Origin: Nitrospira sp. UBA5698
Lineage (GTDB): Bacteria > Nitrospirota > Nitrospiria > Nitrospirales > Nitrospiraceae
Length of the DNA stretch: 64,000 nucleotides
Direction: 5' to 3'
NCBI GenBank assembly: GCA_002420115.1
Contig: DIHK01000007.1
Coordinates: 60,136 to 124,135 of the forward strand
The translations under genes were made by a program, and so were the position numbers. This document shows, one piece after another, positions 13,081-35,080 of this stretch; position 1 is the stretch's first letter, and each line of letters begins with the position of its first letter. Under the pieces are notes generated by a model. That model made no database searches. It worked only from the letters and a program-made list of their open reading frames with translations, and had not been told where the DNA came from.

Positions 13081-13163
13081 GATGCATCGGACCGTAACAC
13101 ATGGTTTTTCATAAACACAACCCGCCTCGTCTTCTCTTGAGCTGTTCCGCTATACTCTTTCTC

Positions 13164-13856
13164 ATGACTCAACACTCGGCACCCAGCGCTCAGCACGTCC
13201 TCGATTGGTCCCAGATCGATGACGTGCTCCTCGATATGGACGGCACGTTGCTGGACCGTCATTTCGACAACTTCTTTTTTGAGGAGGAGTTGCCGCGTCG
13301 GTATGCGGCGCTTCATGCCATCCCGTTCGAAGAAGCACGTGCTCGTCTCATGGCAATGTACCGATCAGTGGAAGGAGAGCTCGAGTGGACTGACCTGGAT
13401 TATTGGACAAGGCGGGTTGGGATTGATGTGGTGGCGATGCACAAGGAACTGGATCACATGATCGGCTTTTTGCCTGGCGCGGAGGGATTCTTGCACCATC
13501 TTCGGCAACTCGGGAAGCGGATAACGATTGTGACGAACGCCCATTCGACGGGAGTTTCCGTCAAAATGGCCAAGACGGGACTCGATGGCTACGTGGACCG
13601 CATTGTCGATGCGTTCGAAGTGGGCTATCTCAAGATGCGACCGGAATATTGGCCGAATTGTCAACAATTACTGGGCTTCGAGCCGTCGCGATCCCTGTTT
13701 ATGGATGATGATGAAGGCTGTTTGACGGCTGCGAGAGCGTTTGGGGTGGCTCATCTGGTGCATAGTGCCAAGTCAAGTTCACAATTGCCGCCTGCTCCGC
13801 TTCCACAGTTTTTCTCGGTCGCGGGGTTCGCACCGCTTCTCAATGGTCGGTTGTGA
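13164..13856 (+). CDS. HAD hydrolase, YrfG-like GMP/IMP nucleotidase
   Basis: LLDMDGTLLD motif I, TNAH, FMDDDE; start uncertain (ORF track 13101). Confidence 0.85.
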   Translation: MTQHSAPSAQHVLDWSQIDDVLLDMDGTLLDRHFDNFFFEEELPRRYAALHAIPFEEARARLMAMYRSVEGELEWTDLDYWTRRVGIDVVAMHKELDHMIGFLPGAEGFLHHLRQLGKRITIVTNAHSTGVSVKMAKTGLDGYVDRIVDAFEVGYLKMRPEYWPNCQQLLGFEPSRSLFMDDDEGCLTAARAFGVAHLVHSAKSSSQLPPAPLPQFFSVAGFAPLLNGRL

Positions 13857-13858
13857 AG

Positions 13859-14479
13859 CTAAGGTAAACTGGTGGCCGTACCGCGATACATTTCTCCACC
13901 TATTCTCGGCACACTCTGCATAGCAAATCGATCGAGCTGAGTGATGGTCAATCCGGCTTGAGCGATCAGATCATCAATCCGGCGATTTAGATTGCAGCCG
14001 CAGCCGATGATGTTCTGAACGGGATTGAGTCTGTCCTGCCAGCGGGCAATCTTCTGGTCGTCGCTCCGACCATGTTCCAAAAAGAAAAACCTGCCTTCCG
14101 GTCTCAGAACACGCCGTACTTCTGCAAGCGAACGTAGCGGCTCGGAGATCGTGCAGAGTGTCCATGTGCTGACCGCACAATCGAATGTGCGATCATCATA
14201 GGGAAGCCGTTCGGCACTGTGATGGGAAATCTCAACCGGAAAGGACACTCCCCCACGCCGTTCTGTCACACGCGCAGGGAGCATGGGGTTGGGGTCGACG
14301 GCCCGCACCCGTGACACGTTGGGTCCGTAGTGACGAAGATTAAGCCCGGTCCCAATCCCGATTTCCAGCACCTCACCGGCCACTGATTGGAGGACTTCCG
14401 TGCGCAATCGTTGGAACGCCTCCCCACGCATGACGTGATCCATCAGGCGAGGGAAGATATGTTTGCAATAGAGTCCCAT
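13859..14479 (-). CDS. Class I SAM-dependent methyltransferase
   Basis: VLEIGIGTG, LPYDDRTFD, FLEHG. Confidence 0.9.
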   Translation of the reverse strand: MGLYCKHIFPRLMDHVMRGEAFQRLRTEVLQSVAGEVLEIGIGTGLNLRHYGPNVSRVRAVDPNPMLPARVTERRGGVSFPVEISHHSAERLPYDDRTFDCAVSTWTLCTISEPLRSLAEVRRVLRPEGRFFFLEHGRSDDQKIARWQDRLNPVQNIIGCGCNLNRRIDDLIAQAGLTITQLDRFAMQSVPRIGGEMYRGTATSLP

Positions 14480-20099: not shown

Positions 20100-20177
20100 G
20101 GTGGGTGTAGCTCAGTTGGTTAGAGCGCCGGATTGTGGATCCGGAGGTCGCGGGTTCGAAACCCGTCATCCACCCCA
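20100..20177 (+). tRNA. tRNA-His (GUG) with G-1 and encoded CCA
   Basis: Acceptor GTGGGTG/CATCCAC, anticodon arm CCGGA-TTGTGGA-TCCGG, T-loop GTTCGAA, C discriminator. Confidence 0.97.
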
Positions 20178-21388
20178 CTCGCCCTTCTCGGAACTACTGA
20201 ATACTCAAGCTGATCCGAAGAAACCGGCCCCATAGCGGCACCTACCGGTTGCGCGGGGGTTGCAGAATTGGGCAGTCCCACGGGTGTATCCAGCCGATCG
20301 ACGGCTTGCTTGTTCCCACCTGGGATGAGGTGTCCGTAGAGGTCCACGGTCACCTGAATGGAGCTGTGGCCCATCTGATCTTTCACATAGACCGGGCTTT
20401 CCCCGTTCTGCAGCAGGAGCGAGGCGAAGGAGTGACGTAAGTCATGGAACCGGACTTGTCGCACGCCCGCCCCTTTCAGCAGACGGAAGAATTTCAGGCG
20501 GATCCGGTTCTGATTCAGTGGCTGGCCCTTCTCGTTACAGAAGACCCATGGGGGGCCTTCCTTCCATCCACGTGCGGCCGCTTGAAACTGCCGATCAAGC
20601 TGCAGCGTTTCCAAGGTAGCTGTCAGTTCACGAGACAGGTCCACGCGTCGAGATTCGCCGCTTTTGGGCGTAGTCATCTTGCCGTGTGTGAAATTTCGAC
20701 GGACCTCCACGAAACGCCCCGCAAAGTTGATATCCTCCCACTGAAGGGCCAGAAGCTCGCCTTGCCGTAATCCGGTTCGAGCTGCACAGAGGAACGCCGG
20801 ATAGAGAGTCGGCGCCATGGTCTTCGTATAGGCCAAGAAGAGGGCTAGTTCCTGTCCGGTCAAGGGATTGATCGAACGGCGTTTGCTGATCTTCGGCAGG
20901 AACTTGCCGGGCCGCAGGGCCGGATTGACCGTGACGAGATTATCCTCCACGGCGTGACTGAACAAGCTGCTGATTGTGCGGATGATGTTCTGCACGGTCT
21001 TGGCCGACAAGCCCCGTTGCAGACAGCCGACGGCGAACGCCTTCACCTTCTCCCGGGTGATCTGTTGGAGATCCTGTCCGCGAAAGACCGGGAGAACATA
21101 ACGGTCGAAAATCTTTCGGTAGTCGTCGTGCGTGGTATGTTTACGGGTCTGTTCGATCCGTTCAAGAAAGGTCTGGGCATAGGCGTCGAGGGTCACGCTG
21201 GTCTGTGGGCGGTCGAACGCCGCTTGCCCCAGTGCCAGCCGAGCTTGGATCTGTTGCGCTACCTGCTTGGCAGCTTTCCTGCCAGGCTCTCCGGTGCCAA
21301 TCCGCTTGGCCTTGCGCGTGCCTTGATGGTTGATAAAGACCCACCAAGCCCCTTTCCACTCTCGAATCTTCACGCCCATGAGGCCCAT
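20120..21388 (-). CDS. int: Tyrosine recombinase/integrase; C-terminus reads through attL into the tRNA antisense strand
   Basis: ARTGLRQGEL, RFHDLRHSFAS, MGHSSIQVTVDLYGH. Confidence 0.95.
   Translation of the reverse strand: MGLMGVKIREWKGAWWVFINHQGTRKAKRIGTGEPGRKAAKQVAQQIQARLALGQAAFDRPQTSVTLDAYAQTFLERIEQTRKHTTHDDYRKIFDRYVLPVFRGQDLQQITREKVKAFAVGCLQRGLSAKTVQNIIRTISSLFSHAVEDNLVTVNPALRPGKFLPKISKRRSINPLTGQELALFLAYTKTMAPTLYPAFLCAARTGLRQGELLALQWEDINFAGRFVEVRRNFTHGKMTTPKSGESRRVDLSRELTATLETLQLDRQFQAAARGWKEGPPWVFCNEKGQPLNQNRIRLKFFRLLKGAGVRQVRFHDLRHSFASLLLQNGESPVYVKDQMGHSSIQVTVDLYGHLIPGGNKQAVDRLDTPVGLPNSATPAQPVGAAMGPVSSDQLEYSVVPRRASGVDDGFRTRDLRIHNPAL
20155..20181 (+). repeat. attL core, 27 bp TTCGAAACCCGTCATCCACCCCACTCG
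   Basis: Exact copy at 37051-37077; covers the tRNA-His 3' end. Confidence 0.95.
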
Positions 21389-21399
21389 CTTGGGGGATC

Positions 21400-21714
21400 C
21401 TATGCTCGTTCTGTCAAGCGCCGAAGGTTAGGTGCCTGGACTTGCGAAACGACCGCGTCGACCAGTTCACTAAGATTGTCTGTACAGTTAGAGACTCGGT
21501 GTCTGGCAATCCATCGATCGAACTCTTCACGTTTCACAAGAATCTTTCCTTCAATTCGGTAGCAGGGGAGTGGATGGTTTCGATCAACAAGGCGATTCCT
21601 CAACCATCTGACCGAAGTGCACGAATAGGTCGCCAACGCTTGGAGATCGAAATAGCCGGGTGCTGCCTTGTTATCCAAGGATCTCATAGCGAGCGTCGTC
21701 TTGGTGCCCGTCAA
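21400..21714 (-). CDS. Excisionase-like winged-HTH protein
   Basis: YFDLQALATYSCTSVRWLR..LPCYRIEGKILVKREEFDRW; immediately upstream of int; start may be 21687. Confidence 0.8.
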   Translation of the reverse strand: MTGTKTTLAMRSLDNKAAPGYFDLQALATYSCTSVRWLRNRLVDRNHPLPCYRIEGKILVKREEFDRWIARHRVSNCTDNLSELVDAVVSQVQAPNLRRLTERA

Positions 21715-21795
21715 GATTTGGCTGCCTCGTCGATTGTCAGAATGGTCATGATTGTCCTAGAAAGGTACGAGGCTCCCCAGACCATTCGGCAAACA

Positions 21796-24195
21796 TCATG
21801 CTGAAATCCCTCGCACCCGCATGACTGACGGCATTTCGTCGAACACCGCCCGCGCGATCTCGCGCCCGCTCAATTCCACAGTAATGCTGACGGGCCCGCC
21901 GCCGCTCCCGCCGCCCATCGCCTCACGCATAAACGACGCGCCGCGCTTGTTGAGCGGAATCACCGCCTCACTGCTGCCCGCCTCACCGATCATGCCCAAC
22001 GTCGGCCCCGTGACCACGCCGCCGTCGGCAAACGCAAACGCCATCAGCGACCCAATAGCCGCGCCGATGATCGCCACACCCGCCAGAATGGCAATGCCGT
22101 ACGGAATGCCGAAGATCGTCGCCGCCGCCGCCGCCGCGATGGCCGACAGAAACGTCATGAGCGCGGTCCCGATCGACACAAAGAAGGGAATCAGCGTTGC
22201 CGTAAAAAATCCGGTGATCGCTCCAGTGAGCGCCGCAAAGGTGCCCGTGATCCCCGCCGCCGCGCCAGCCCATATGCTCGTCGTCGCCGTAGCCGCCGCC
22301 GCATCGCCCGCCACGATCGTGGCATTCTTCGCCGCATTGATCCCCATAGTCGAGGCCGCCGTGGCCGACACAATGCCCAGCTCTACCGAGGCCTGCAGCG
22401 CCAGCGCCGCCGCCTTCTGAATGCCGAAATTCAAGAGCCCCTGCAGCACGGCCACCTGCGTCGACTTCCAGGCCTGCTCCACAAAATTGCCGCCGTTCAC
22501 CGCCGCATTCGCCAGGCCCGACGTCCAGCTGGTGGTGATCTGCCCGATGGAAAAGCTATTGCTTTGCACGATGGCCTGCATCTGTTGCTCAAAAAACGTC
22601 GGAAACTGCTGAATCGCCTGCCGCCGCCGCGTGTCCATCTGTAGATCCAGATTCATGATGGCCGCCGCCTTCTTTTTCTCATCGAAAATCGTTTCCTCGA
22701 TCACGCGCTTCTGCAGAGCCCCCTCCGCTGCGATCAAATCCATCCGCTTCATACGCGCAATATCCGAGGCCCCGAACAATGCAAACTCAGACTGAAAGAG
22801 CGCCTGCTGCGCCTCGTCGACCACCTTGGCCCGCTCCGCTGCCATCTCAAGCGCGTCGTTGCGATGTTTCCAGGCCTCGGTGGCCTCTTGGACTATCTGA
22901 TAGCCGGCTTCTTCCTCCTGGGTGATCACAGCGAGTTTTTGCTCGGTCTGGAAATACAGATCCAGCTCCTTGGATAGATCTCCCTGAATGCGTTGATGAA
23001 TTTGTAACAGTGTCCGTCCGAGAGCCTCCTGCGCTTTTTCCTCGGACGTGAGCGCCCCAAGTTGGGACTGCGTCATTTGCACGATGACGCGTCCAAGCGC
23101 TTCCTGGGCATTTTGTTCCGCCTTTACCAAAGTGTTCTTGTGGATGAACTGCCCGAGCAATCGGTGGCCGATCTTTTCCTGCTGCTGCCCTAAGGCAATG
23201 GCGCGCTCCTGCACGTGGGTGTCCTGCTGGCCAACAGGCGGAGGGGGAACCGCCGGGGGTGGCAGTTGCGCGGCTCTCAGTGCCGCTGCTGCCGAAGCCA
23301 GCCCAGGCATGAGGCCCGAGAGAATCGGATGGTCGGTTTTGACCTTGTTCAGCTCAGTCGAGAAATTTGAAACCAGACCTGTCAATTTCGTCACGCCGCT
23401 GGTCATCGTCTCGATGCCTTGCGTGACGGGCCCGGCAAAGACCAGGGAAAGGCGTGTCTTCAGCCCATCAACGGCCTTTCCAAGCTTGTCATAGGAATCG
23501 TCCGCTTCTGTCAAGGCATTCATTTGCTCATGGCTGAGCACCAATCCAAATCGCTTCGCGGCCTCACTCGATTCGTCAAGCGCCTTGGATCCACGATTGA
23601 GGACTGGGATCAGTTCTAGCCCCGCCTTGCCAAACAGCTCAACAGCGAGACGCGATTTCTCTGGCCCATCCGGCATTTCCTTAAAGCGGTCCGCGACCGC
23701 TCGGATCGTCGACTCCGTCGATCCCAGCTCGGTGATGGAGATGCCCATCTGATCAAACAGCGCGGCGGCTTTCGTCGCTGGATTTTGGGCATCCACGATC
23801 TGCCTTGAAAGGGTTCGCATCCCCGAGGTGAGTGTTTCTGCCTGAAAATTGTTTTGTGCCATGACCACCGACCAGGATTGCAGGCTCTGCGCATTAATTC
23901 CGGTTCGCTGGCTGAGATGGTCGATTGCCTCCGCCTCTTTCCCCGCCTGGAGGGTTAAGGCCACAGCAGAGGTTGCCGCTGCCGCCACGGCTCCAGCAAG
24001 GACTCCCGCCGCTGCCGCACCGCCCTTTGCCAGGTTCATGAAATTATCAATGGATGTACCGAGGCTGCCGCCGATTGCATGCCCTGCCGATTCTGCGCTC
24101 GCCGTGAACCGATCAAGGTTGCGTTGCACGTTATCGAGCGTCTTCATAAGTGGGTTGGCATCCGCCACGAGTTCCAGTGCAATTCGATTCGCCAT
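21796..24195 (-). CDS. Phage tail tape measure protein, 799 aa
   Basis: LSQRTG..LQ, AVADRFKEMPDGPEKSRLAVELFGKAG, Ala/Gly-rich hydrophobic segment, C-terminal FADGGVVTGPTLGMIGEAGSSEAVIPL; GAAGGAG RBS. Confidence 0.9.
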   Translation of the reverse strand: MANRIALELVADANPLMKTLDNVQRNLDRFTASAESAGHAIGGSLGTSIDNFMNLAKGGAAAAGVLAGAVAAAATSAVALTLQAGKEAEAIDHLSQRTGINAQSLQSWSVVMAQNNFQAETLTSGMRTLSRQIVDAQNPATKAAALFDQMGISITELGSTESTIRAVADRFKEMPDGPEKSRLAVELFGKAGLELIPVLNRGSKALDESSEAAKRFGLVLSHEQMNALTEADDSYDKLGKAVDGLKTRLSLVFAGPVTQGIETMTSGVTKLTGLVSNFSTELNKVKTDHPILSGLMPGLASAAAALRAAQLPPPAVPPPPVGQQDTHVQERAIALGQQQEKIGHRLLGQFIHKNTLVKAEQNAQEALGRVIVQMTQSQLGALTSEEKAQEALGRTLLQIHQRIQGDLSKELDLYFQTEQKLAVITQEEEAGYQIVQEATEAWKHRNDALEMAAERAKVVDEAQQALFQSEFALFGASDIARMKRMDLIAAEGALQKRVIEETIFDEKKKAAAIMNLDLQMDTRRRQAIQQFPTFFEQQMQAIVQSNSFSIGQITTSWTSGLANAAVNGGNFVEQAWKSTQVAVLQGLLNFGIQKAAALALQASVELGIVSATAASTMGINAAKNATIVAGDAAAATATTSIWAGAAAGITGTFAALTGAITGFFTATLIPFFVSIGTALMTFLSAIAAAAAATIFGIPYGIAILAGVAIIGAAIGSLMAFAFADGGVVTGPTLGMIGEAGSSEAVIPLNKRGASFMREAMGGGSGGGPVSITVELSGREIARAVFDEMPSVMRVRGISA

Positions 24196-24212
24196 GATGT
24201 CTCCTTCGCGTA

Positions 24213-24677
24213 CTACGTAAAGAACCGATGGATCCCTGGCAAGTCCGGCTGATTGCCGTCAGGCAATTTCTTCACTCTTGAGTGGGCCACGGGGGACGCG
24301 CCGAGCTCTGCCAGCGCGCGATGATAGGCCGTCCTCGCGGTATCCCGAATACGAACCTCCGGCCGCATGCGGATGACAGTTCCCGCCTCGCCCGTCGTTT
24401 CATAGGTCAGGCCTTTCTCTTGGATAATTCGATCTGCAGTCGTCATCTGTGAAAACGCAGAGACGGCGACGAGTAACATGCCTCCACTGGCAGGACTCAA
24501 AATCGGAGCCAGGCGCTCGACCAACCGATCCCACTCTTCGCTCGCGAGCGTGTCGAGGCTCGAGGGCTTCTCAATTTCTCCAGCCGTAAACGGCTCACCG
24601 GTATCCGATACCGGCCGATGGCCCGGGTTACCGGAAAGCAGCCTTAACCGCTCGTCTTTGGGTTTGCGGCCCTTCAT
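24213..24677 (-). CDS. Terminase small subunit, P27 family
   Basis: MKGRKPK..LLSGNPGHRP, LDTLASEEWDRL, ELGASPVAHSR (start refined to ATG 24677). Confidence 0.88.
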   Translation of the reverse strand: MKGRKPKDERLRLLSGNPGHRPVSDTGEPFTAGEIEKPSSLDTLASEEWDRLVERLAPILSPASGGMLLVAVSAFSQMTTADRIIQEKGLTYETTGEAGTVIRMRPEVRIRDTARTAYHRALAELGASPVAHSRVKKLPDGNQPDLPGIHRFFT

Positions 24678-25051
24678 AAATCTTCCATCACGTTCGGAAT
24701 GGTTGGGGTGCATCTCAGTGCATGACACGCGACTAAATACGGTTCTTTCCAATCTCTCGACGCCAACTTAGAACCTGGCATTCCCCACCGACGCGCCAGC
24801 TGTTCGATCTTGACCCGATACGAGAACGCCTGCGCGGCTAACTCAATGAGAGGTCCGTCATGAAGGAAGATGCCGTCTGGCTGCGCTTGCCGTTCGGCTA
24901 CGAGCCGGTTCCATTCGCGTAAGGCATCTGCATCAAGTCCAGCGGGCATGGGAGGAGTTCCCTTCATCGGTCCGACAATTTCGAAAGGATGAGCGACCTT
25001 TCTTGAAGTTTCATGCTCGGCTTGTGGACCTTTACTCATGATCACCTTCAT
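24674..25051 (-). CDS. Divergent second P27-type TerS paralog
   Basis: PAGLDADALREWNRLVA aligns with PSSLDTLASEEWDRLVE; ATGA overlap with terS. Confidence 0.55.
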   Translation of the reverse strand: MKVIMSKGPQAEHETSRKVAHPFEIVGPMKGTPPMPAGLDADALREWNRLVAERQAQPDGIFLHDGPLIELAAQAFSYRVKIEQLARRWGMPGSKLASRDWKEPYLVACHALRCTPTIPNVMEDL

Positions 25052-25061
25052 CCATCACAGA

Positions 25062-25160
25062 GGGGGAAAATATTCCCAATTTCGCGGCGGCATACGGTGA
25101 GGGAAGACGGTCGGTCTACGCTGAAAACCTGTAGAGATTTCACCCCCCTACCCCCTCCTT
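25062..25160 (-). other. Putative cos packaging site (HK97-like)
   Basis: Between HNH and terS genes: GGGGGTAGGGGGGTGAAATCTCTACAG..GACCGACCGTCTTCC..CGCGAAATT, resembling cos regions of HNH-terS phages; exact nick site not determinable. Confidence 0.65.
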
Positions 25161-25492
25161 CTTTCTGAACCTGTCTTGATATTGTGACATCGCGTGCATA
25201 GAGGCTGAAGGTTACACTCATCATCCGTGCCACCATTCACCTTCGGCCTTATGTGGTCCACCAGCACAGCCCTGCTCCGCATACACAAACGACAGAATGG
25301 GAATCGTTTCAGATACTCAGCCCTCAGCTTTCTCCATTGCCGATCGTACCCTCTTGCCGTCGAGCTCCCACGCCGATCGTCATAGAGCCGTGGTTTCTCC
25401 GCTTGTGGCACCACAGGCCGCGCATGCTTCGCACAAGGGCCCAGCACCGGACATCCAGCAACGGGGCAGGGTCTCTTCGGCAGCATCGGCAT
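25148..25492 (-). CDS. Terminase-associated HNH endonuclease (HK97 gp74-like)
   Basis: RGSSTARGYDRQWRKLR..PFCRLC..VDHIRP..GG..NLQPLCTRCHNIKT; AGGAG RBS before ATG 25492. Confidence 0.9.
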   Translation of the reverse strand: MPMLPKRPCPVAGCPVLGPCAKHARPVVPQAEKPRLYDDRRGSSTARGYDRQWRKLRAEYLKRFPFCRLCMRSRAVLVDHIRPKVNGGTDDECNLQPLCTRCHNIKTGSERRRG

Positions 25493-25628
25493 CAGGCCAC
25501 TCCTTGTCGTATTCCGGCGGCAGTCGCAGCTAAACCCCTCGGGTTGAGATCTGCGACTCCGGGCGGACGTGTACGGTAACGAGTCGCACACGCTCTCCAT
25601 GCTGACTTGTGACCATTCATTGCATATC

Positions 25629-25895
25629 CATCGTTGCAACTCCCCCTCTTATAAAGAGGGGGGTTGCAATCAACGATGCCCTGCAACGATCACCGTTGCA
25701 GGGAAACGGTTTGTGAATCAATGAGTTATAGAGAGTTGCAACGCTGCAACGATCTGCAACGATGAAAAGGCTGCAACGATGCGCTGCAACGATGAAATTC
25801 ATAAGCCATAGTTGCAACGAAAACCCTTTCCTATGGCGATGTTTCAGCGATTGTGCAACGATGCAACGCTCTGCAACGATATTCCTGCAACGATG
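25629..25895. repeat. Iteron-like array, putative origin: 11 direct + 2 inverted TGCAACG, GC hairpin 25634-25669, IHF consensus 25716-25728
   Basis: Counted by eye; AATCAATGAGTTA matches WATCAANNNNTTR; lies immediately 3' of the helicase-like gene. Confidence 0.75.
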
Positions 25896-25912
25896 GCTGA
25901 ACGGGGATGAAC

Positions 25913-27151
25913 TCATCGGTTCACACAAGTCCATTTCGTCTCGCGTCCACTGCCGATCGAGTGCCACTTCTGAGCATTCTGGCGCGACAGGGTACTCTTA
26001 ATCGTGGCCACGGGCGCCGCCAAGGCATCGGCAATCTCTTTGGCCGAATAAACGCCGCCGTCCTTTTCGAGAAAGTTCCGGATCCGGCTGGCAATAGGGA
26101 GCCCTCGCTCGAGTTCAAGCGTCTGGCTCAGGTCGCACGCTTCGTACGCCATTGCCGTGTTCGTCGCATTCTGGCGCACGCGCAAGCCGATGGGCGGATG
26201 TAGCCGGCTCAAGTTCGACTTACGATTGAAGAGCCCGAGCACGGATTCATCGGCGCCAACGTCCTGCTCTTTCTTCAGCTCCCAAGTCGACCGGGCAAAG
26301 TTCTTATAGAACACCGAGCCATAAATGCCGGCCTCTTGTTGCTGCTCGTTCATCTTGGGAATATGAGCCAGCACCAGAGCACCCCGGTTCAGCATCCGCA
26401 GGGCCCGAAACGCTTTCGTGGCCGCTTCAGCACTTGCATCGCCACAGGTTGCAGCAGCCAGACTATCCAGGATGATGAAATCAATGCGCTCAAGTTGAAC
26501 GAGCCGGAGCAAGGTCGGGAGAATGTTCCAGATTGGTTCGTGATGGGTTTGATAAATCAGCTCGGCAGACTTCAGGGCAGGGTGGCAGGTGGCGATCGCC
26601 TCACGGCGCCGCGCGTGCACATCCAGCGTATCCTCGTAATCCAGGTACAACACTCGACCTCTCACGGCACTCAGGCCGGCCACCGATTCCCCACTCGAGA
26701 CGAGCATACCCATCAAGAGTGCCAAAGAGCTTTTCCCGAGCCCGCCATCGCCATACAGAATGGTCACCTTGCGAGAGAACACAATCGGATTAAGCTGATA
26801 GCTGAGAGTTTCGACCGGCGTCTCGGCGTTCAGCCGATGGGGTGGCTCGCCCTCTCGGAAGCGGCGGAGAACAAGCACAGCGGTCGCTTCGATCAACCGA
26901 GTCCAAGCAGGCAGCTCCAGCCGGCCATCATATTCATGAACTTTCTTGGCGACGCGGCTTTTGTCACCATTGAGATTGACCCTCGCACCTTCACACAGAG
27001 TCTTGTCTCCGTCGAGCACCGTGAACTCTGAAACAATCCCCTGCGATTGTCTGGTGAGGTATTCCACGAGAAAACGAATGTTGCTTTCCGGCCAATGCAC
27101 AGAGAACCCATTGCCCAAGTCGGAAATCTCAGGATCGCGGGGGGACATCAA
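25913..27151 (-). CDS. RepA/DnaB-like AAA helicase with C-terminal HTH
   Basis: Walker A GDGGLGKS, YLDYED, Walker B IILDSL, LAHIPK, GSVF. Confidence 0.85.
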   Translation of the reverse strand: MMSPRDPEISDLGNGFSVHWPESNIRFLVEYLTRQSQGIVSEFTVLDGDKTLCEGARVNLNGDKSRVAKKVHEYDGRLELPAWTRLIEATAVLVLRRFREGEPPHRLNAETPVETLSYQLNPIVFSRKVTILYGDGGLGKSSLALLMGMLVSSGESVAGLSAVRGRVLYLDYEDTLDVHARRREAIATCHPALKSAELIYQTHHEPIWNILPTLLRLVQLERIDFIILDSLAAATCGDASAEAATKAFRALRMLNRGALVLAHIPKMNEQQQEAGIYGSVFYKNFARSTWELKKEQDVGADESVLGLFNRKSNLSRLHPPIGLRVRQNATNTAMAYEACDLSQTLELERGLPIASRIRNFLEKDGGVYSAKEIADALAAPVATIKSTLSRQNAQKWHSIGSGRETKWTCVNR

Positions 27152-27524
27152 GCCCTCCTTGCGTAGCTGAGCCAGGCAGCACCGTTCGGGCGATTGCGCG
27201 TCGAAGGGCTTGCAGCTCAGCGTGAAGGGTACGCACCTTAGCCTGCACTTGAGCCAGTTCGGCTTCGACAGTGGAACTCATATGCGGCAGCCGGCAACCG
27301 TGACGGATATACGCAGAAAACTCTCGATCGCACAGTGCATTGATATAGGTCAGCGATGGACGCGAAGGATGGCGGCGAGAACGAAACCCTGTTCGATATG
27401 GGCGAGGTCGCGTGTCGGAAACAAAGAGATCCGACATTGGGCAATCGAAGGCGTCCTCCTGATATTCTTGAGGCATCAGCAGCGTCCCTTCGCATCTAGC
27501 AAAAGTGACACACATATCAGCCAA
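27129..27524 (-). CDS. Hypothetical protein with C-terminal coiled coil
   Basis: Co-oriented ORF overlapping the helicase start; start uncertain. Confidence 0.4.
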   Translation of the reverse strand: MADMCVTFARCEGTLLMPQEYQEDAFDCPMSDLFVSDTRPRPYRTGFRSRRHPSRPSLTYINALCDREFSAYIRHGCRLPHMSSTVEAELAQVQAKVRTLHAELQALRRAIARTVLPGSATQGGLDVPPRS

Positions 27525-27527
27525 AAC

Positions 27528-27911
27528 TTAACCAAGCTGCGCTTTGGTGCCAGCATGGGCTCCCTCATCCACGGGCAGGGGATTGTCGATTGACCGTCCG
27601 GCCCGAACGGTCGACGCCTCGTCAGGTGTAAGCAGGCCACACTGCTCACTGAGATCGATCAGTTTCATCAGATCAAAGAATGATGGCTGCATGTTGAGAT
27701 TGATCAGATGCGCGTAGAGCGCTTTGTGGTCATCTGGCAGCAGGGGGAACATCCGATCGAGCTCATCGCTGGCAAGATGAGCGCACCGAAGTATCTGCAC
27801 CATCTGCCGGGCGACGAACCTGGGCACGGTATAGTCCGGCGGCGCGGCCACCTTGTGGCGCGGCTCCTGAAGACCTGCACGTTTCGCTTTCTTAATCTTC
27901 CACATGGCCAT
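27528..27911 (-). CDS. Hypothetical protein
   Basis: Co-oriented ORF in the element operon. Confidence 0.55.
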   Translation of the reverse strand: MAMWKIKKAKRAGLQEPRHKVAAPPDYTVPRFVARQMVQILRCAHLASDELDRMFPLLPDDHKALYAHLINLNMQPSFFDLMKLIDLSEQCGLLTPDEASTVRAGRSIDNPLPVDEGAHAGTKAQLG

Positions 27912-28001
27912 TCCACCACACGTTTCTAACTGGCAATCGTCAGTGCACGCCCGTCCTCGGATGCGGCTAGCTTGCACCGCATCCGAGCTCCTGCGCAGTC
28001 A

Positions 28002-28295
28002 TCACCCACGCGAGCGGAGTGCAATGACTCCCTCAAACGCCGTTGGAGTGCCCCCCGCTTCCAAAAGGGCGAGCTCCGTCTCGGCCTCCCATCTACGCAG
28101 ACGCACTCTAGCCTTTGCGAGGTTGGTTTTAGCGTGCCGCTCATCAGTTCCTGACTGCTCAATGGCGCGTCGAAGCATGGTGCGGTACTCCGAAGTGTGT
28201 TTGAAGCGACGCAAGCTCCCCGCAGCCGTTGCACACTCGTAGTTACTGCGTGAGTCAAATTTACCGTCCAATCCGATCAACGAGTATTCGCGCAT
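28002..28295 (-). CDS. Hypothetical protein
   Basis: GGAGGA RBS, co-oriented. Confidence 0.6.
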   Translation of the reverse strand: MREYSLIGLDGKFDSRSNYECATAAGSLRRFKHTSEYRTMLRRAIEQSGTDERHAKTNLAKARVRLRRWEAETELALLEAGGTPTAFEGVIALRSRG

Positions 28296-28308
28296 GGCAT
28301 CCTCCCTC

Positions 28309-28941
28309 TTATGCTATGACCAATTCAGAATGATCGATGGATGGCAGCGCCGCCTGCAGTCCCTCTAACTCCTGTCGCAATTCATCTTCGGTCCGATCCA
28401 AGTACTTCAGCTCCTCAGCACGGGAGCGCGCCGCCAGGACAGCACCCGCTCGCCGACTAATGGCCGGGGCGTTACTGAACCTAAGTCGGGGCGTTTTGGG
28501 ATTATCGGCAAATAAATTCTTGTCACCAAAACCGATGTGCGTCTTTGGTATGAGCTTGACGAGCTCAGTATGTTCGGCATTCATGGATTCGATGAATTTA
28601 TCGAGCTGGGCGGAACATGTAGTCCGCAACAGGGCAAGCTGCTTGTCAATTGCAGCCGAATTCTCGATCCACTCGCACCACAACCGGGATGTGTTGGCTC
28701 GAACGCGCTCCCGAAGTTCAGCGAGCTCGATCTCGAGATCGGCAATACGTGCCTCATCAGCCACCATGTCAGCTTTCCGAGCATCGAGTGCACACATCTT
28801 CCCCTTGAGATCATTCAACCGTGCAAGAATGCTGGCCCGCTCGGGCACTGCAGGTGCAGCCGAAGGTGGTTTCGTAGTAGGGCTGCTTGTATGCGACAAT
28901 TCCTCACGAAGTATTGATTTGACGATCGCTCGAAAATCCAT
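28309..28941 (-). CDS. Coiled-coil hypothetical protein
   Basis: AGGAGG RBS before ATG 28941; heptad pattern. Confidence 0.7.
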   Translation of the reverse strand: MDFRAIVKSILREELSHTSSPTTKPPSAAPAVPERASILARLNDLKGKMCALDARKADMVADEARIADLEIELAELRERVRANTSRLWCEWIENSAAIDKQLALLRTTCSAQLDKFIESMNAEHTELVKLIPKTHIGFGDKNLFADNPKTPRLRFSNAPAISRRAGAVLAARSRAEELKYLDRTEDELRQELEGLQAALPSIDHSELVIA

Positions 28942-28997
28942 GAATCGCTCCTCCTTGTTGTCGTCAATCCTTATCACACAGACCATTTGGCATTCGT

Positions 28998-29192
28998 TTA
29001 CCCACCAGCCGGCCAGATCACGCCTACAGGGAAGCCGATCGCGTGGGCGATCAGCTCCTTCGCTTCATCGGACGGACAAAGGTAATAATCCTCGATTTGG
29101 ATGATAGTTTCCGGAGGTACGCCTGCTCGGGCAGCTACCTCTTCGACTGAGAATCCGATGCGCTTCCGCAAGGTTTTCAGGTTTGGCGACAT
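28998..29192 (-). CDS. XRE-family HTH protein
   Basis: LKTLRKRIGFSVEEVAARAGV..TIIQIE. Confidence 0.85.
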   Translation of the reverse strand: MSPNLKTLRKRIGFSVEEVAARAGVPPETIIQIEDYYLCPSDEAKELIAHAIGFPVGVIWPAGG

Positions 29193-29211
29193 CCATCCCT
29201 CCCTATCTGCA

Positions 29212-29433
29212 TCACGCCGCTGTTGGTGAACTGGGTTGGTCGCCGGATGGCCAGATCGCCACCACATCAACACCGAGAGCCTTCGCAATCTTCAGTTTCG
29301 TCTCCACACGTGGAGTATGGCCGTGCCGTTCGATCGCGACGATGGTCCCGGGCCCGACTCCTGCCCGTACGGCGACTGCTTGGATAGCCAGCTGACGCGC
29401 CACTCGCAAGGACCTAAGTTTTGAAGCCACCAT
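29212..29433 (-). CDS. XRE-family HTH protein (paralog of neighbour)
   Basis: LRSLRVARQLAIQAVAVRAGV..TIVAIE..KIAKALGV. Confidence 0.88.
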   Translation of the reverse strand: MVASKLRSLRVARQLAIQAVAVRAGVGPGTIVAIERHGHTPRVETKLKIAKALGVDVVAIWPSGDQPSSPTAA

Positions 29434-29661
29434 GATTATCACCTCATGTTTTTATTGTGTTTACTCCAGCTATTAAACAAAGTCATTGAGGCTGAATTAA
29501 AATAAATGCAGCCTACATAGTGAGGCTGTCGACTGAACAGAGTCTGGCGACTTTGTTCGATGCACAGCGCCAAGGCGGACGTTGGCGCTGCGTAATGGGC
29601 TGTAATGGAGCTGAGAGGGGTGAGCTAAGCTACAAAGAAGTGGAAGCCGACTTGACGATGC

Positions 29662-30243
29662 TCAGGTCTGGAGTCGTTTGAGTATCTCAGCCCGTGTGAG
29701 GTACCGACTTTTGGAAGAATGTTGCTGTGGTCTTTTACGCTTCCACAACTCTCCCTTGAGTTCATCAATCAGCCGGTCGAGCTCTAGGTCTTGCTTGGCC
29801 TTGACTCGAGCGCTATGGCGCTCAACCGACTCTGGTTTGCCAAGCCACCACTTTAAGAAAAACGGCTTCGCGACCGGCCCATACATCTTCTTGAGCCAGG
29901 TTTCGTCAGCCGCTGTAAGATTCACAACACTGGTAATATAAAATAGCTTCCAAATCTTGAAATACACCTTAGCTCTCGACAAGGAAATTTTATATTCCTT
30001 ACTGATATGTCGTGCGACAGCATGCTTTGTTGGAAGGGGTTCGTTTTGCCTTAGCATGTTCAGCACGTATTGAGTTATTGCCTTGAAGATCTGAAGGTCA
30101 GCAACTTTTGCCCGTACCCCTGGGCGCACCTCTGGATGCACATACTCAAAAGCGGCTCTTGCCGCGTCGAGGAACTTCCCTTGAGCGTCGAAAGATTTCG
30201 CTGCTTGCTTCAAGAGCTTAATGGGCTCAATGTGCCGCGGCAT
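29662..30243 (-). CDS. Basic hypothetical protein, visibly AT-richer
   Basis: 193-aa ORF with GGAG RBS. Confidence 0.7.
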   Translation of the reverse strand: MPRHIEPIKLLKQAAKSFDAQGKFLDAARAAFEYVHPEVRPGVRAKVADLQIFKAITQYVLNMLRQNEPLPTKHAVARHISKEYKISLSRAKVYFKIWKLFYITSVVNLTAADETWLKKMYGPVAKPFFLKWWLGKPESVERHSARVKAKQDLELDRLIDELKGELWKRKRPQQHSSKSRYLTRAEILKRLQT

Positions 30244-30393
30244 TTCAACTCCGATTCTTTTAAGTTTGGTGTGAGCGATAGCGCAGTACTACTCTATGTG
30301 GCCAATAGTCTCCTCGCAATCGCTTCCATTTTATGCGTCGAAAAGATCAACCGCTAGACCGCTGACAGCGAGCGGCCTAGCGCCTTCAGGCTC

Positions 30394-30579
30394 TCACCTC
30401 TTGCCTGTCCTAGAAAGCTTGATCGCCTCGGCCGCAGTAATTCGGCCCGCCACCACTTCTTTCATGATCCTCGACACTAAAGCAGCCTTGTGATGATTCG
30501 GCATCCCCTCAGCGGCGTCCAACCAATCTCTCTTCCGGTCGATTTGGCTTGTAAGTATGATCCGCGTTTGCGATTTCAT
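30394..30579 (-). CDS. Small hypothetical protein
   Basis: Overlaps the upstream stop; AAGGAA RBS. Confidence 0.5.
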   Translation of the reverse strand: MKSQTRIILTSQIDRKRDWLDAAEGMPNHHKAALVSRIMKEVVAGRITAAEAIKLSRTGKR

Positions 30580-30821
30580 AGCGTTCCTTTTTTGTTGGAC
30601 ACAAGCAACTGCCGGCAGAGCATCAGAACGGCCTGCGTGTGCAAGACGTACAAGCCCATATGAATGCCGTGACTCTTATACGTTGGCGGCTTCTCGTCCT
30701 CCATCCGCTCAATGACCTTCTGCACTGTCACAAGGCCCAACTCCAGCGCGCGGAGTGCTTCCTCGAATCCTTTCACTTCATCTTCACTGATGATGGTCCG
30801 TACAGTCACGAGGTTGACCAT
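30576..30821 (-). CDS. Small hypothetical protein
   Basis: Co-oriented, RBS-like AGGAAAGG upstream. Confidence 0.6.
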   Translation of the reverse strand: MVNLVTVRTIISEDEVKGFEEALRALELGLVTVQKVIERMEDEKPPTYKSHGIHMGLYVLHTQAVLMLCRQLLVSNKKGTL

Positions 30822-30896
30822 GATGAGTTTCCTTTCTTGCTCTGATGGGCGCCTAGTTATCGCGAGCAGTCAGCCTACTACGAGCGTTCACTATCC

Positions 30897-31253
30897 CTAG
30901 GAGCACAGTTCATCTTCAACAACGGGGTAATGACCAGCCCGCATCCCAAAGCAGCGCCGACGGGCCTGATAACGGTCAAGGTCACCAGTGGCCTCAGAGA
31001 AACCATCACCTAATTGGTTTAGTAGATGGTCCAGGAACAAGAGACCCTTGTGCTTGGTGGGGAAGGGGCCGAATCGTCTAGGACGGAGCCCGGTCATCTC
31101 CACGCGCAAAAACCACACCGTCCGACCGAATTGATCTCTGCTTCGCTTGAACCATTCCTCTCGAGGTTTCACCTCCATGATCTCAATCTTTTCTCGCTTC
31201 TTGCGTGGCGCAACCGCCTTGGCTTTGCCCGTATCGGTCAATGATTGTCCCAT
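30897..31253 (-). CDS. Hypothetical protein
   Basis: AGGAGG RBS before ATG. Confidence 0.65.
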   Translation of the reverse strand: MGQSLTDTGKAKAVAPRKKREKIEIMEVKPREEWFKRSRDQFGRTVWFLRVEMTGLRPRRFGPFPTKHKGLLFLDHLLNQLGDGFSEATGDLDRYQARRRCFGMRAGHYPVVEDELCS

Positions 31254-31378
31254 CGTGCGTCCTCCTGTTCAGGTTCGTGTGTTGGTCGTTCAGATCGGCT
31301 GCATTTCAGTTCCTCAACCCAATAACTTGTCAGCCTCCTCATCCGACCGTTCAGGCTGAATTGCAGGTGTCTCATGGC

Positions 31379-31475
31379 CTATCCACGCTATCCACAAACA
31401 TCCACAGCCCAGATTCAAGATTCCTGATTTACGATCTACGATCCAAGATTCAAGATAAAGATCTAAGATTTAAGA
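31379..31475. repeat. Three DnaA-box-like ATCCAC units followed by a 7-bp-period GAT array; candidate second origin
   Basis: CTATCCACG 31379, CTATCCACA 31388, ACATCCACA 31398; GAT at 31412,19,26,33,40,47,54, then 60, 67. Confidence 0.65.
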
Positions 31476-31512
31476 GTTCCTACGCCGGTCTGAACGCTCG
31501 TCGAACGAGTGT

Positions 31513-32046
31513 TCAGATAACCATGCGAGCCACCTCCTGACGGTCGTTCGACACCGGTCGGAACTCCCGTTCCAACAAGTCTGGAAGCCCCTGTGCAAAT
31601 GGTGACAGTCCGCTCTTAAGACAATGCTTCCTGGCCAGCAGGAGAAATTCGTTCATCAGCTCCGGGTTATCCGGAAGATTGCGAACCCGCGCAAGCACTG
31701 CCTTCTGAACATTCTTGCTGTCGGGCTGCTGATACCGGAGCGCGTTTCGGATGAGGAGGAGGTTCGTTTTCTCATCGAATCGAATGAATCCCTCCTCCTC
31801 GAGTTTCAACAGCATGTCCTTGACCCGCCGGAGCGGCCAGGCCATATCCGCAGCGACGTATTCCGGCGGCAACACAAAAAAGCCTTCCAACGTGCGGTGC
31901 TTCGTCGTCAGAAGGTGCAACGCGAAGAGCCTCTGCGAGTCTGGCCAGGTGGCGACCTTCTCATCCGACCAAAAGTGACAAGCTATGCGGTAATACCTCG
32001 GCACATCGGGGCGCTTTGGTTTATTGGTTTGCTCGTCGTCCAACAT
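31513..32046 (-). CDS. Phage replication initiator / replisome-organiser N-terminal winged-HTH protein
   Basis: RYYRIACHFWSDEKV..LFALHLLT..H..LEGFFVLP..YVAADM..LEEEGFIRFDE..LLIRNALRYQ. Confidence 0.75.
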   Translation of the reverse strand: MLDDEQTNKPKRPDVPRYYRIACHFWSDEKVATWPDSQRLFALHLLTTKHRTLEGFFVLPPEYVAADMAWPLRRVKDMLLKLEEEGFIRFDEKTNLLLIRNALRYQQPDSKNVQKAVLARVRNLPDNPELMNEFLLLARKHCLKSGLSPFAQGLPDLLEREFRPVSNDRQEVARMVI

Positions 32047-32066
32047 CGAGACCTCTCCTCATACAC

Positions 32067-32477
32067 TTAGTGAGCCGTCGATCGACTCATGGCACGGCCA
32101 GTCCTTCGCGTACTAGGCATCTGTAACGGATCAATCGGATCGGAGTTGCTGAATAATTCATGAGTGAGCCGAACATAGGTGACGAGCTCGCTCACGTCGT
32201 CAAACTCACTTCTCAATTCGTCAACGATGAGTTGCACAATGCTGGCATCGATATGTGATCGGCTTTCTGCAGCCATGAACAACAGATCCAACCGCTTCTT
32301 ACAGTTCCCGAGAATGTACAGGGCGAGGTCACCATCTTCTGCAAACCATTTGAGGCCGAATGGTTTCTGATCAGTCACGTCCCTGATCTGTCCATCTTGA
32401 TCGCGATGGAGAACTCTTGCCTGTAACGCCAACCTCGGCTCGGTTTCCTCAGTTTCGGTCGTCGTCTTGGTTTTCAC
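32067..32477 (-). CDS. Hypothetical protein
   Basis: AGGAGG RBS, GTG start. Confidence 0.6.
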   Translation of the reverse strand: MKTKTTTETEETEPRLALQARVLHRDQDGQIRDVTDQKPFGLKWFAEDGDLALYILGNCKKRLDLLFMAAESRSHIDASIVQLIVDELRSEFDDVSELVTYVRLTHELFSNSDPIDPLQMPSTRRTGRAMSRSTAH

Positions 32478-32532
32478 AGGACCTCCTGGTTTAGAAGTTC
32501 AGAGCAAACGGTGCACCGGAGATACGTCACGT

Positions 32533-32679
32533 TCACGATCGCAGTTCCTTTCGTTGCTTAAATTCCTTCTCCAGCAGATTACGGATGAACCCACTGGCCG
32601 AAATCCCCTCCTTTCGCAAGGCATCCAATTTGACCTTCATTCCCCTCGGCACGCTGATCAGTATCTTCACCATCGCCAT
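32533..32679 (-). CDS. Ribbon-helix-helix (Arc/CopG-like) regulator, 48 aa (absent from ORF track)
   Basis: MAMVKILISVPRGMKVKLDALRKEGISASGFIRNLLEKEF; GGAGG RBS. Confidence 0.8.
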   Translation of the reverse strand: MAMVKILISVPRGMKVKLDALRKEGISASGFIRNLLEKEFKQRKELRS

Positions 32680-32702
32680 AGCCTCACCTCCAATGACTAT
32701 AA

Positions 32703-32769
32703 ATATAGATTTCTATATATTCATATGTCAAGGCATATGATTGACTATATCGAGCGTGGCCAGTACAGT
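32703..32769. promoter_or_regulatory. Divergent sigma70 promoters with two palindromic operators
   Basis: Rightward TTGACT(32741)-N17-TACAGT; leftward TTGACA(32731)-N18-TATATT; inverted repeats ATATAGA-TT-TCTATAT and TCATATG-N6-CATATGA. Confidence 0.75.
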
Positions 32770-32780
32770 ACCGAGACGCA

Positions 32781-32960
32781 ATGGCGACGAAGGGCAGTAA
32801 CTCAACGGAAAAGCGAAGGAAAGTGTTTGGCTTGAGCCTCGATCGACAGCTCATGCTCGATATCCAGCACTTAGCACTCGACCAAGACCGCTACGTGAAT
32901 GAGATGATTGAAGAAGCTGCGAAGGACCTGCTGAAGAAGTACCGAGAGAAGGCGAAATAG
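32781..32960 (+). CDS. Ribbon-helix-helix regulator, 59 aa, probable element repressor (absent from ORF track)
   Basis: RRKVFGLSLDRQLMLDIQHLALDQDRYVNEMIEEAAKDLLKKY: beta-helix-helix pattern. Confidence 0.8.
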   Translation: MATKGSNSTEKRRKVFGLSLDRQLMLDIQHLALDQDRYVNEMIEEAAKDLLKKYREKAK

Positions 32961-33062
32961 ATACCTTCAGCTTATGAGCTGACAAGAATCAGGCGGCACG
33001 TGCCGAGTGCCTTCATTGCGATCCATCCCCAAGACCCAGCAGGAAGAATTACGAGGCACACG

Positions 33063-33521
33063 ATGAAAAGCTCGATCACCTTTGGACGGCTGGGCACCCA
33101 CAGCCTACTGGCTTTCTTCCTTATCGCCTTTACTCTGGGCTGTACACGCCTCACACCGCAAGAACGGGAACACTACGCTTCTCGTGTCTATGATATCCCT
33201 CATGACCGCGTGTTCGAAGCAGTCAAAGAGCGGGTGCGGCAATACCCGATGGGTCTACAAGAGACTGATCTACAGCAAGGCCTTGTGAAAAGTCGGATTG
33301 GTGGGACCACGCCGGGCATCGGAGCGACCGTCGGCTATCAAATCACCGTCATGACCACGGCGGAAGGCCAGCGGACGAGGGTGGTTCCAACCTGGCAGAT
33401 GAATATTTCATCAGAACCAACCAAAACCCACTTGCTTCCTGTCACGATCGACGATCGGCCGTTGCTCTATTTGGAGTTCTTCGACGCACTCGATGAACAG
33501 CTCGAGAAAGCACGTCAGTGA
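33063..33521 (+). CDS. Lipoprotein of unknown function
   Basis: Signal II FTLGC; start refined to ATG 33063. Confidence 0.75.
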   Translation: MKSSITFGRLGTHSLLAFFLIAFTLGCTRLTPQEREHYASRVYDIPHDRVFEAVKERVRQYPMGLQETDLQQGLVKSRIGGTTPGIGATVGYQITVMTTAEGQRTRVVPTWQMNISSEPTKTHLLPVTIDDRPLLYLEFFDALDEQLEKARQ

Positions 33522-33534
33522 GGAAAAGGCACCA

Positions 33535-34695: not shown

Positions 34696-34792
34696 GCCCC
34701 CCTCTTTCGATGTACCTCGTTCAGTTCTGGTGGGAATCGGACGTCCTGATACGGTTATCTCAGACACGATCACGACACAGGAGGACACCACA

Positions 34793-35032: not shown

Positions 35033-35080
35033 CGGTAAACACCCAGCCCACAGCTTTTCGAGCACGAAAGGAACACGGTC

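Follow-up and report, generated by a model that had tools for sequence, protein, structure and literature searches.

A small terminase gene joined directly to a full-length tape measure gene in a putative family of Nitrospira phage satellites

This work deals with a stretch of 64,000 nucleotides from Nitrospira sp. UBA5698 (GenBank assembly GCA_002420115.1, contig DIHK01000007.1, positions 60,136 to 124,135), called the window below; positions are those of the window unless another locus is named. An integrated island in it carries a gene for a small terminase subunit (terS) that is joined directly to the gene of a complete tail length tape measure protein (TMP). Judged from its genes, the island would be one of a group of phage satellites, not described before, in which these two genes stay together. 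The features around the junction are the following.

24674-25051, minus strand: divergent TerS paralogue, 125 amino acids, overlapping terS by ATGA (BLASTP, PHROG, iterative search)
24213-24677, minus strand: small terminase subunit (P27/Terminase_4 type), 154 amino acids from the ATG at 24677 (Pfam, PHROG)
24201-24207, minus strand: Shine-Dalgarno motif GAAGGAG, 5 nt before the TMP ATG (sequence)
21796-24195, minus strand: TMP, 799 amino acids, intact (PHROG TMP families; phage alignments)
21787-22964, minus strand: recombinant tract, TMP codons about 411-799 plus 9 nt, with 92.7% DNA identity to the TMP gene of phage locus L276 over 1178 nt
21787-21799, minus strand: remnant of the distal tail gene Dit, 13 nt, ATGATGTTTGCCG, the ATG overlapping the TMP stop plus 4 codons (comparison with L276)
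21400-21714, minus strand: excisionase/AlpA-like HTH_17 protein, 104 amino acids (weak Pfam HTH_17; PHROG 66)

The terS product is matched by Pfam Terminase_4 (E 5.8e-14) and by PHROG 83, terminase small subunit (E 2.4e-23). Its likely start, the ATG at 24677, shares an ATGA with the TGA of the open reading frame (ORF) upstream, and its stop is the TAG at 24215-24213; in the closest satellite relative, locus L245, the orthologue likewise has 154 amino acids. The upstream ORF of 125 amino acids is related to terS by BLASTP (32% identity over 56 amino acids, E 3e-4) and reaches PHROG 83 with E 0.028, and an iterative search started from it pulls in terS ORFs. A tandem terS-like pair is also present in locus L009 (9132-9524 and 9521-9991, with overlapping stop and start), where the upstream member is highly diverged. 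The upstream TerS-type protein could be a partner of TerS in a hetero-oligomer or a competitor of the TerS of a helper phage.

The spacer between terS and the TMP ATG (24195-24193) comprises the 17 nt at 24196-24212, which read tacgcGAAGGAGacatc on the minus strand and contain the Shine-Dalgarno motif. A preliminary description of this DNA had reported the 17-nt distance from the terS stop, the ribosome-binding site GAAGGAG belonging to TMP itself, the intactness of TMP and the xis-like gene that follows it, and all four were confirmed in the sequence. An AAGGAG or GGAG site just past the terS stop and ahead of the TMP ATG is found in every satellite copy of the gene. Phages differ at this point, as the coding sequence of tail_T extends up to the TMP ATG. 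The match of the xis-like gene to Pfam HTH_17 is weak (E 2.6e-5; 24.8 bits, below the cut-off of 27), that to PHROG 66 has E 7e-4, and homologues occupy the equivalent position in L001, L006, L165, L245 and L278, the L001 copy bearing PF12728.

The TMP matches 11 PHROG TMP families with E values from 8e-25 to 9e-5. The window TMP has no Pfam match, PF10145 being found in some relatives, and its profile has no sequence match in the PDB. It aligns from end to end, C-terminal motif included, with the canonically placed TMPs of complete siphophages, and its full-length identity to phage orthologues (L004, L246, L247, L248, L276, L277, L279, L280) is 46-69%. The protein begins with a conserved N-terminal region, continues with a variable helical middle and a hydrophobic segment rich in Gly and Ala (residues 653-728) and ends in a conserved C-terminal motif, which is the domain plan of siphophage TMPs such as lambda gpH, HK97 gp16 and 80alpha gp56. 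The context is unlike theirs, with terS before the gene, xis and int after it and no frameshifted pair of G/GT chaperones.

The preliminary description had noted that no tail assembly chaperones lie at the junction. Family-specific profiles (hidden Markov models, HMMs) made from about 20 related phages gave no match in the island for TerL, portal, protease, capsid, head closure or tail completion protein, nor for terminator, tube, TAC_1, tail_T, Dit or Tal (all E >= 0.028), and profile-profile comparison of each island ORF of unassigned function with hhalign gave probabilities below 5%. At the level of sequence, HMM and profile-profile searches thus extend that observation to the entire island, where no chaperone was found. 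A 225-aa ORF was considered as a hidden chaperone on account of a PHROG TAC match of E 0.007, which involves a low-complexity stretch; neither the family HMMs nor hhalign supported it. The gene set is therefore that of a satellite in which neither TerL, portal, capsid and tube genes nor genes for a chaperone, the tail tip or lysis are recognised, whereas two TerS-type genes and an HNH endonuclease are present. The absence of structural and lysis genes means that the satellite must borrow these from an HK97-like siphophage.

About 84 near-full-length relatives of the TMP were collected, nearly all from Nitrospira-type metagenome contigs, and their neighbourhoods fall into two classes, several of the gene contexts being taken from short metagenome contigs. 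The satellite class comprises 11 distinct loci (the window, L245, L278, L002/L003, L165, L006, L001, L005, L009, L169 and L179). Their layout is HNH, one or two terS genes, TMP, xis, integrase and tRNA, and the order terS-TMP-xis-int is kept in all 11. Integration sites lie at tRNA genes for His (window, L005, L006, L165), Glu (L002/L003, L009, L169) and Lys (L001). In nine of the islands terS is joined directly to TMP with a gap of 9-35 nt, and in the other two (L002 and L165) a tail completion gene stands between them; this gene (at 9547-9951 in L002) belongs to PHROG 5, of the lambda gpZ/HK97 gp10 type, and is 45-57% identical to the phage copies. The TMP ORF is intact in 10 of the 11 islands, the split copy being that of L006, which comes from a metagenome-assembled genome (MAG). 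There, at 6510-8983, the gene is frameshifted near residue 562, leaving a 590-aa ORF and a remainder, and this may represent either a true pseudogene or an error of long-read assembly.

The proposal in the preliminary description that terS and TMP form a selected module gains strong support from these comparisons. The layout recurs in 11 diverged islands at three tRNA sites, and is thus not peculiar to this genome, as the description had said it would have to be for a refutation, the TMP is intact in nearly all of them, and the ratio of nonsynonymous to synonymous substitutions (dN/dS) of TMP between the window and L245 is 0.08, with dS 0.31. As judged from these substitutions, the TMP is under strong purifying selection. 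The synonymous divergence is uneven along the gene, with a dS of 0.06 in the first 300 codons and 0.61 in the last 270, and this tenfold jump toward the C-terminal third indicates intragenic recombination.

The phage class consists of more than 30 complete siphophage loci from Nitrospira-type metagenomes with a homologous TMP. Their gene order is TerL, portal, protease, capsid, head closure, tail completion, terminator, tube, TAC_1, tail_T, TMP, Dit, Tal and fibres, and the run of tube (TTP), TAC_1, tail_T, TMP and Dit is found in L004, L246, L247, L248, L276, L277, L279 and L280. One phage-type locus occurs as a duplicate, with identical marker matches, 38 kb apart on a contig of a Nitrospira MAG (L010 and L011; JALHMZ010000010.1, 17110-39287 and 55429-77606). 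In a neighbour-joining tree, a plain distance method applied here to a gene that recombines, the satellite TMPs occupy at least four places among the phage TMPs. The clade of the window unites satellites (window, L245, L278, L002, L006, L001, L165) with phages (L246, L276, L277, L279, L280).

Satellite and phage TMPs are mosaics of one another, as the comparison with phage L276 shows. Residues from about 480 to 799, that is, the last 320 or so, are 98-100% identical in both proteins, with about 96% identity at the nucleotide level, the first 250 residues are 50-77% identical, and the region of about 240-440 is unrelated (15-30%). A different case is satellite L165, whose TMP is 81% identical to that of phage L277 over its whole length. 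The similarity between the window and L276 ends 9 nt past the TMP stop, within the first 13 nt of Dit. In the phages an ATGA holds both the TMP stop and the start of Dit, so that the Dit codons surviving after the TMP stop in the island indicate that the gene was taken from a phage tail operon. Remnants of Dit are also found in other satellites, with about 16 codons in L169 (including an in-frame stop and matching phage L115), about 23 in L278 and 24-31 in L165, and their varied lengths show that TMP is retained while its neighbour decays.

The island that holds these genes extends from 20155 to 37077, about 16.9 kb, in a tRNA-His gene. HNH, the TerS-type genes, TMP, the xis-like gene and the integrase are all on the minus strand and are read from 25639 to 20120. 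A scan for promoters and terminators performed no better than on shuffled sequences and found no terminator between terS and TMP. Besides the features given above, the island and its target comprise the following.

20101-20177, plus strand: tRNA-His (GTG), the integration target (ARAGORN)
20155-20181, no strand: attL core, overlying the 3' end of tRNA-His (27-bp repeat; empty-site contigs)
20120-21388, minus strand: tyrosine integrase, its 3' end overlapping the tRNA/att core (Pfam Phage_integrase E 8.6e-28; PHROG 1 E 7e-69)
25148-25639, minus strand: HNH endonuclease of a type linked to cos packaging; the limits are those of the maximal ORF, and the real start is probably more internal (Pfam HNH E 3.3e-10; PHROG 144 E 1.5e-27)
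25913-27151, minus strand: AAA_25 (RepA/primase-helicase-like) replication protein (Pfam AAA_25 E 1.6e-16)
27129-27977, minus strand: two conserved satellite ORFs of 131 and 149 amino acids, no assigned function (homologues in L001, L002, L005, L006, L165, L245)
28998-29442, minus strand: two Cro/CI-type HTH_3 regulators (domain match)
31513-32046, minus strand: DnaD-like replisome organiser (PHROG 1701 E 2.5e-20)
33000-36461, plus strand: opposite-strand cargo with PilZ, a response regulator, a DUF326 Cys-rich protein and ORFs of no assigned function (domain search)
37051-37077, no strand: attR core, second copy of the 27-bp repeat

The att core is an exact direct repeat of 27 bp, TTCGAAACCCGTCATCCACCCCACTCG, composed of the final 23 nt of tRNA-His plus 4 nt, with copies at 20155-20181 and 37051-37077. 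In sequencing run X3 one contig covers exactly 20151-37069. Contigs of a related population contain the empty site, fusing 20180/20181 directly to the far flank, and in four runs of 2025 from such a population (X7-X10) the flanks have a read depth of 39-82x and the island of 1-15x. The low depth together with the empty-site contigs indicates a true insertion that is missing from most of the related cells. These contigs also omit the 239 bp just past attR (37077-37315), the joints of the empty site falling at 37314/37391 and not at 37078; the gap has the appearance of an independent indel or of the remnant of an older att site. The integrase frame enters the tRNA gene in L001 (int 12888-14180, tRNA-Lys 14015-14090), as it does at 20120-20177 of the window, and in L009 the integrase at 13214-14446 likewise runs into tRNA-Glu at 14390-14467. 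Such overlaps across the satellite family place the att core inside the 3' end of int. In the related islands no att repeats were found within the 10-kb flanks examined.

The replication and regulatory part of the island also recurs among the relatives. The AAA_25 protein has counterparts of 76-96% identity in L002, L005, L165 and L245, and the ORFs of 131 and 149 amino acids match no family, profile-profile searches included. When the backbone of L245 is compared with 25148-30821 of the window, AAA_25, these two ORFs, terS, TMP and xis are 94-98% identical, whereas HNH is only 70% and the ORFs on the regulator side are 52-63% identical. The unevenness of these values shows module-level recombination among satellites. 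A homologue of the major capsid protein, 342 amino acids long, is found in L002 (4796-5824), L003 (3507-4535) and L278 (6093-7121), and L169 has a capsid match upstream of HNH. In L002/L003 this homologue is 78% identical to residues 92-415 of the phage capsid and is without the N-terminal 90 or so residues (delta/scaffold region); it may be a redirector of capsid size of the Ccm type. The capsid gene of these sister islands is preceded by a coiled-coil ORF of 212-215 amino acids, homologous to 28309-28986 of the window (63% identical in L245), and its position in the window is taken by a 97-aa ORF.

The cargo (33000-36461 plus 32781-32960, plus strand) encodes PilZ and zinc-ribbon proteins, a response regulator of a single domain, a DUF326 protein that bears a Tat-like signal, a pair of proteins of no assigned function that look secreted and a small RHH antitoxin-like ORF. 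None of the 10 island proteins searched with PADLOC (AAA_25 and nine ORFs of no assigned function, among them the cargo ORFs 33000-33521 and 33493-33966) matched a defence system. Elsewhere in the window, at 59561-63934, four direct repeats of 245 nt that are 65-71% identical lie among long consecutive ORFs of the plus strand; these repeats probably represent paralogous genes with signalling domains and have no connection with the island.

Among the relatives, L009 deserves a separate comment as it is located in the published chromosome of Candidatus Nitrospira defluvii (FP929003), where the island lies at about 3.957-3.972 Mb. A near full-length TerL, 73% identical to the phage TerL, is found about 10 kb upstream of the satellite TMP (L260 1-1659 / L009 1-174), at the far end of the element and upstream of a DnaD-like gene. 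Either the element owns a TerL or it adjoins a prophage remnant, and its left boundary was not found within the flank examined.

The general anatomy of the island resembles that of phage-inducible chromosomal islands (PICIs), such as the cos-type SaPIbov5 and the capsid-forming PICIs (cf-PICIs). They share the size, with about 13 kb of phage-like genes and about 4 kb of cargo, as well as an integrase with att repeats, HTH regulators, own replication, own TerS, cargo and the absence of lysis genes. Packaging by way of cos, as HK97-like systems have it, is indicated by the combination of HNH and a TerS of the P27 type. In PICIs the integrase is at the left end, divergent from the regulators, and is followed by pri-rep and packaging genes, whereas in the island int is downstream and co-oriented, so that the order is not that of a PICI. 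The island also differs by its two TerS paralogues, HNH and TMP, and by the lack of recognisable genes for capsid size or Ppi. Nor is it a cf-PICI, since TerS is the only member of the cf-PICI set in the window, where TerL, portal, protease and capsid are missing.

Satellites with a TMP of their own have already been described. In the PLEs of Vibrio cholerae (PLE1/4/11; Mathur, Boyd et al., Nature 2026; PMC12987554), the TMP of the satellite replaces that of the helper in tails derived from phage ICP1, and a PLE without its own TMP loses 96-99.9% of transduction; the same work, which gave the first experimental proof of satellite-encoded TMPs in 2025-26, lists putative tmp genes in other satellites, cf-PICIs included (Extended Data Fig. 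10). Like the island, the PLEs are integrative satellites with a TMP gene and without tube or fibre genes. The differences are nevertheless considerable. The PLE helper is the lytic myophage ICP1, while the helper type proposed for the island is a temperate-looking HK97-like siphophage. The PLE TMP is accompanied by a chaperone and often by a baseplate hub, both lacking in the island, it is about 20% identical to that of ICP1 and 95 amino acids shorter, whereas the island TMP has the length of a helper TMP and contains segments near-identical to phage TMPs, and PLE11 has the inhibitor Rta, none of this kind being identified in the island. No sequence relationship is expected, as hosts and helpers are unrelated.

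A second comparison can be made with the EPIPs, satellites of the Mycolicibacterium prophage HerbertWM (bioRxiv 2025; PMC12822802), whose small genomes contain terS, HTH, integrase and TMP together with capsid and neck genes. The relatives L002, L278, L169 and L165 resemble them in that their terS-TMP core is supplemented by a tail completion gene or by a homologue of the capsid protein. EPIPs are free 11-kb elements of Actinobacteria with a serine integrase, and their tails are longer and more variable than those of the helper (PMC12822802); the island is unlike them in that its integrase is a tyrosine recombinase acting at a tRNA, the window has no capsid gene and no change of tail length is predicted. 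Satellite-encoded TMPs are thus known from the PLEs by experiment, from the EPIPs and from the putative cf-PICI cases, and what is new is the family of siphophage type in Nitrospira. We found no account of Nitrospira satellites in the literature.

Considering all this, we think that the island is rather probably a PICI-like satellite that makes chimeric tails, with its own TMP inside the tails of a helper, and that terS-TMP is a selected module. The comparisons demonstrate the anatomy of the island, its conservation, selection, recombination and mobility and the phage origin of the TMP; incorporation into tails and any benefit from it are inferred. The TMP gene was lifted from a siphophage tail operon, with one cut exactly at the ATG and the other slightly inside Dit, a few codons from its start, gained its own ribosome-binding site directly after terS and has since traded stretches with the TMP genes of phages. 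While the helper multiplies, the TMP of the satellite would be expressed alongside the packaging genes, would be folded, as we assume, by the G/GT chaperones of the helper and would be assembled into tails whose tube, terminator and tip proteins come from the helper, so that a chimeric tail results as in the Vibrio PLEs. In the neck of 80alpha/SaPI1 three copies of the TMP bind the tail completion protein through their N-termini, next to the end of the DNA, and in 80alpha the C-termini of the TMP bind Tal at the tip (bioRxiv 10.1101/2024.12.10.627806). The termini of the island TMP are the parts where helper proteins have to be matched. Its C-terminal third, near-identical to that of L276, should suit a tip of Tal and Dit, its N-terminus should do so for the tail completion protein, and the central 200 residues would be free to differ. 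A C-terminus identical to that of a possible helper, a conserved N-terminus and a free centre are what is expected of a protein that docks in a foreign tail, and the tail completion gene beside TMP in two relatives points in the same direction.

Incorporation into tails would bring the satellite a benefit, and the likeliest one concerns the ejection or entry of its DNA rather than tail length, because a TMP in the tail lumen exits with the DNA and because two relatives carry a tail completion protein. The pay-off is a matter of speculation; examples would be entry into cells that hold the helper as a prophage, or immunity to a block that the satellite itself directs at the helper TMP, as with Rta of PLE11. 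A specific form of this idea, which we put forward tentatively and regard as rather unlikely, is that the luminal tail parts (TMP and sometimes the tail completion protein) act as pilot proteins matched to the satellite genome, with ends kept identical to those of the helper by recombination and a differing centre. Satellite DNA would then enter cells closed to the helper TMP, for instance lysogens with TMP-directed superinfection exclusion such as that attributed to HK97 gp15 in the account given by PMC11364771 (citing Cumby et al. 2012, 2015), or would resist a satellite-encoded block of the helper TMP.

Several observations weigh against the chimeric tail. No column of the alignment separates satellite from phage TMPs and no residue hints at a satellite-specific property, while the central region is also the most variable one between phages, so that its divergence is not specific to satellites. 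The TMP gene is the only DNA common to the island and L276-type phages, and when L276 was tried as helper by means of terS, the gene upstream of its TerL turned out to be unrelated to the island terS. The satellite is without the chaperone that PLEs carry, and its reliance on that of the helper is an assumption. Read depth in the source sample is equal over the island and its flanks, with no circular junction and no sign of induction. The TMP gene was found in no RNA run. Finally, apart from a predicted provirus in N. defluvii, no satellite-type contig was found in the viral collections.

Other explanations of the junction should be weighed against the chimeric tail. The island might be a dead prophage remnant in which deletions from TerL to tail_T and from Dit to the end left terS beside a TMP that plays no role, and the relic of the Dit start is indeed what origin by deletion from a phage tail operon would leave, as is the lack of induction in the source sample compatible with such a fate. 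The clean double deletion suggested in the preliminary description consequently holds as history, given the four Dit codons that persist after the TMP stop, but not as the full explanation. A functionless remnant does not account for an identical layout in 11 diverged islands at three tRNA sites, for a TMP that is intact in 10 of 11 copies (the split one coming from a MAG) with a dN/dS of 0.08 and a dedicated Shine-Dalgarno motif, or for recent segment swaps with phages in which the junction is kept and Dit decays and TMP does not; moreover, different integration sites and mosaic backbones argue against vertical copies of one ancestral locus. We consider this reading already largely refuted, and the least credible of those discussed here. 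Hardly more credible is the retention of the 2.4-kb TMP gene as a handle of homology by which the satellite recombines into helper genomes to ride along or to gain genes. TMP is the sole DNA shared with phages and recombination inside it is frequent, which speaks for such a handle, but strong purifying selection has acted on the protein, with 100% amino acid identity at about 96% nucleotide identity over residues 481-680, the gene has a dedicated Shine-Dalgarno motif and an ORF intact in nearly all copies, and for packaging the island possesses a TerS and an HNH of its own.

The preliminary description had also offered a tail length specific to the satellite and the poisoning of helper tails as functions. 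Tail length follows TMP length, the tails of PLE11 are about 10 nm shorter than those of ICP1 and those of EPIPs are longer than those of their helper, and some related phages have TMPs of 703 amino acids, so a setter of length would not lack precedents. The lengths nevertheless speak against it: in the clade of the window, satellite TMPs have 788-829 and phage TMPs 796-825 amino acids, with exactly 799 in both the window and L276, and in other lineages the satellite length tracks that of the adjacent phage clade (861-871 versus 825-847; 973 versus 933-1010). The claim of a special tail length is therefore not supported, and we think it very improbable that particles with a tail unlike that of the helper are the purpose of the gene. 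Somewhat more room can be given to an interference weapon, a satellite TMP that mixes with the helper TMP or displaces it at the tip and so spoils helper tail assembly. Its C-terminal third, near-identical to a phage TMP, would dock at the same tip while its centre is unrelated, and satellites do attack tail assembly elsewhere, by Rta in PLE11 (PMC12987554) and by the Tai systems on PICIs (PMC11364771). Yet the TMP is full-length and ordinary-looking, of helper-like length, with conserved termini and no satellite-specific changes, the known interference proteins are small and non-structural whereas the PLE TMP is a structural part of the particle, and the satellite itself also needs working tails. 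Poisoning is thus less likely than injection specificity, the further function that had been proposed at the outset, and as an explanation of the module we judge it improbable.

If the island does form chimeric tails, its family would widen the idea of the satellite TMP to helpers that are siphophages and to a key nitrifier, Nitrospira, on whose phages hardly anything is known. It would also be a cleaner natural experiment, since TMP is the sole tail gene kept in the island and has survived repeated gene swaps while its neighbour decays. The TMP adjoins a tail completion protein in some members and mimics helper TMPs at both ends, where it would touch other tail parts, so that the question why satellites have a TMP of their own is narrowed to the lumen of the tail and the step of DNA ejection. 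Natural chimeras with the same TMP ends and different centres are on offer for such studies. In addition, a likely satellite is flagged in the long-published genome of Ca. Nitrospira defluvii.

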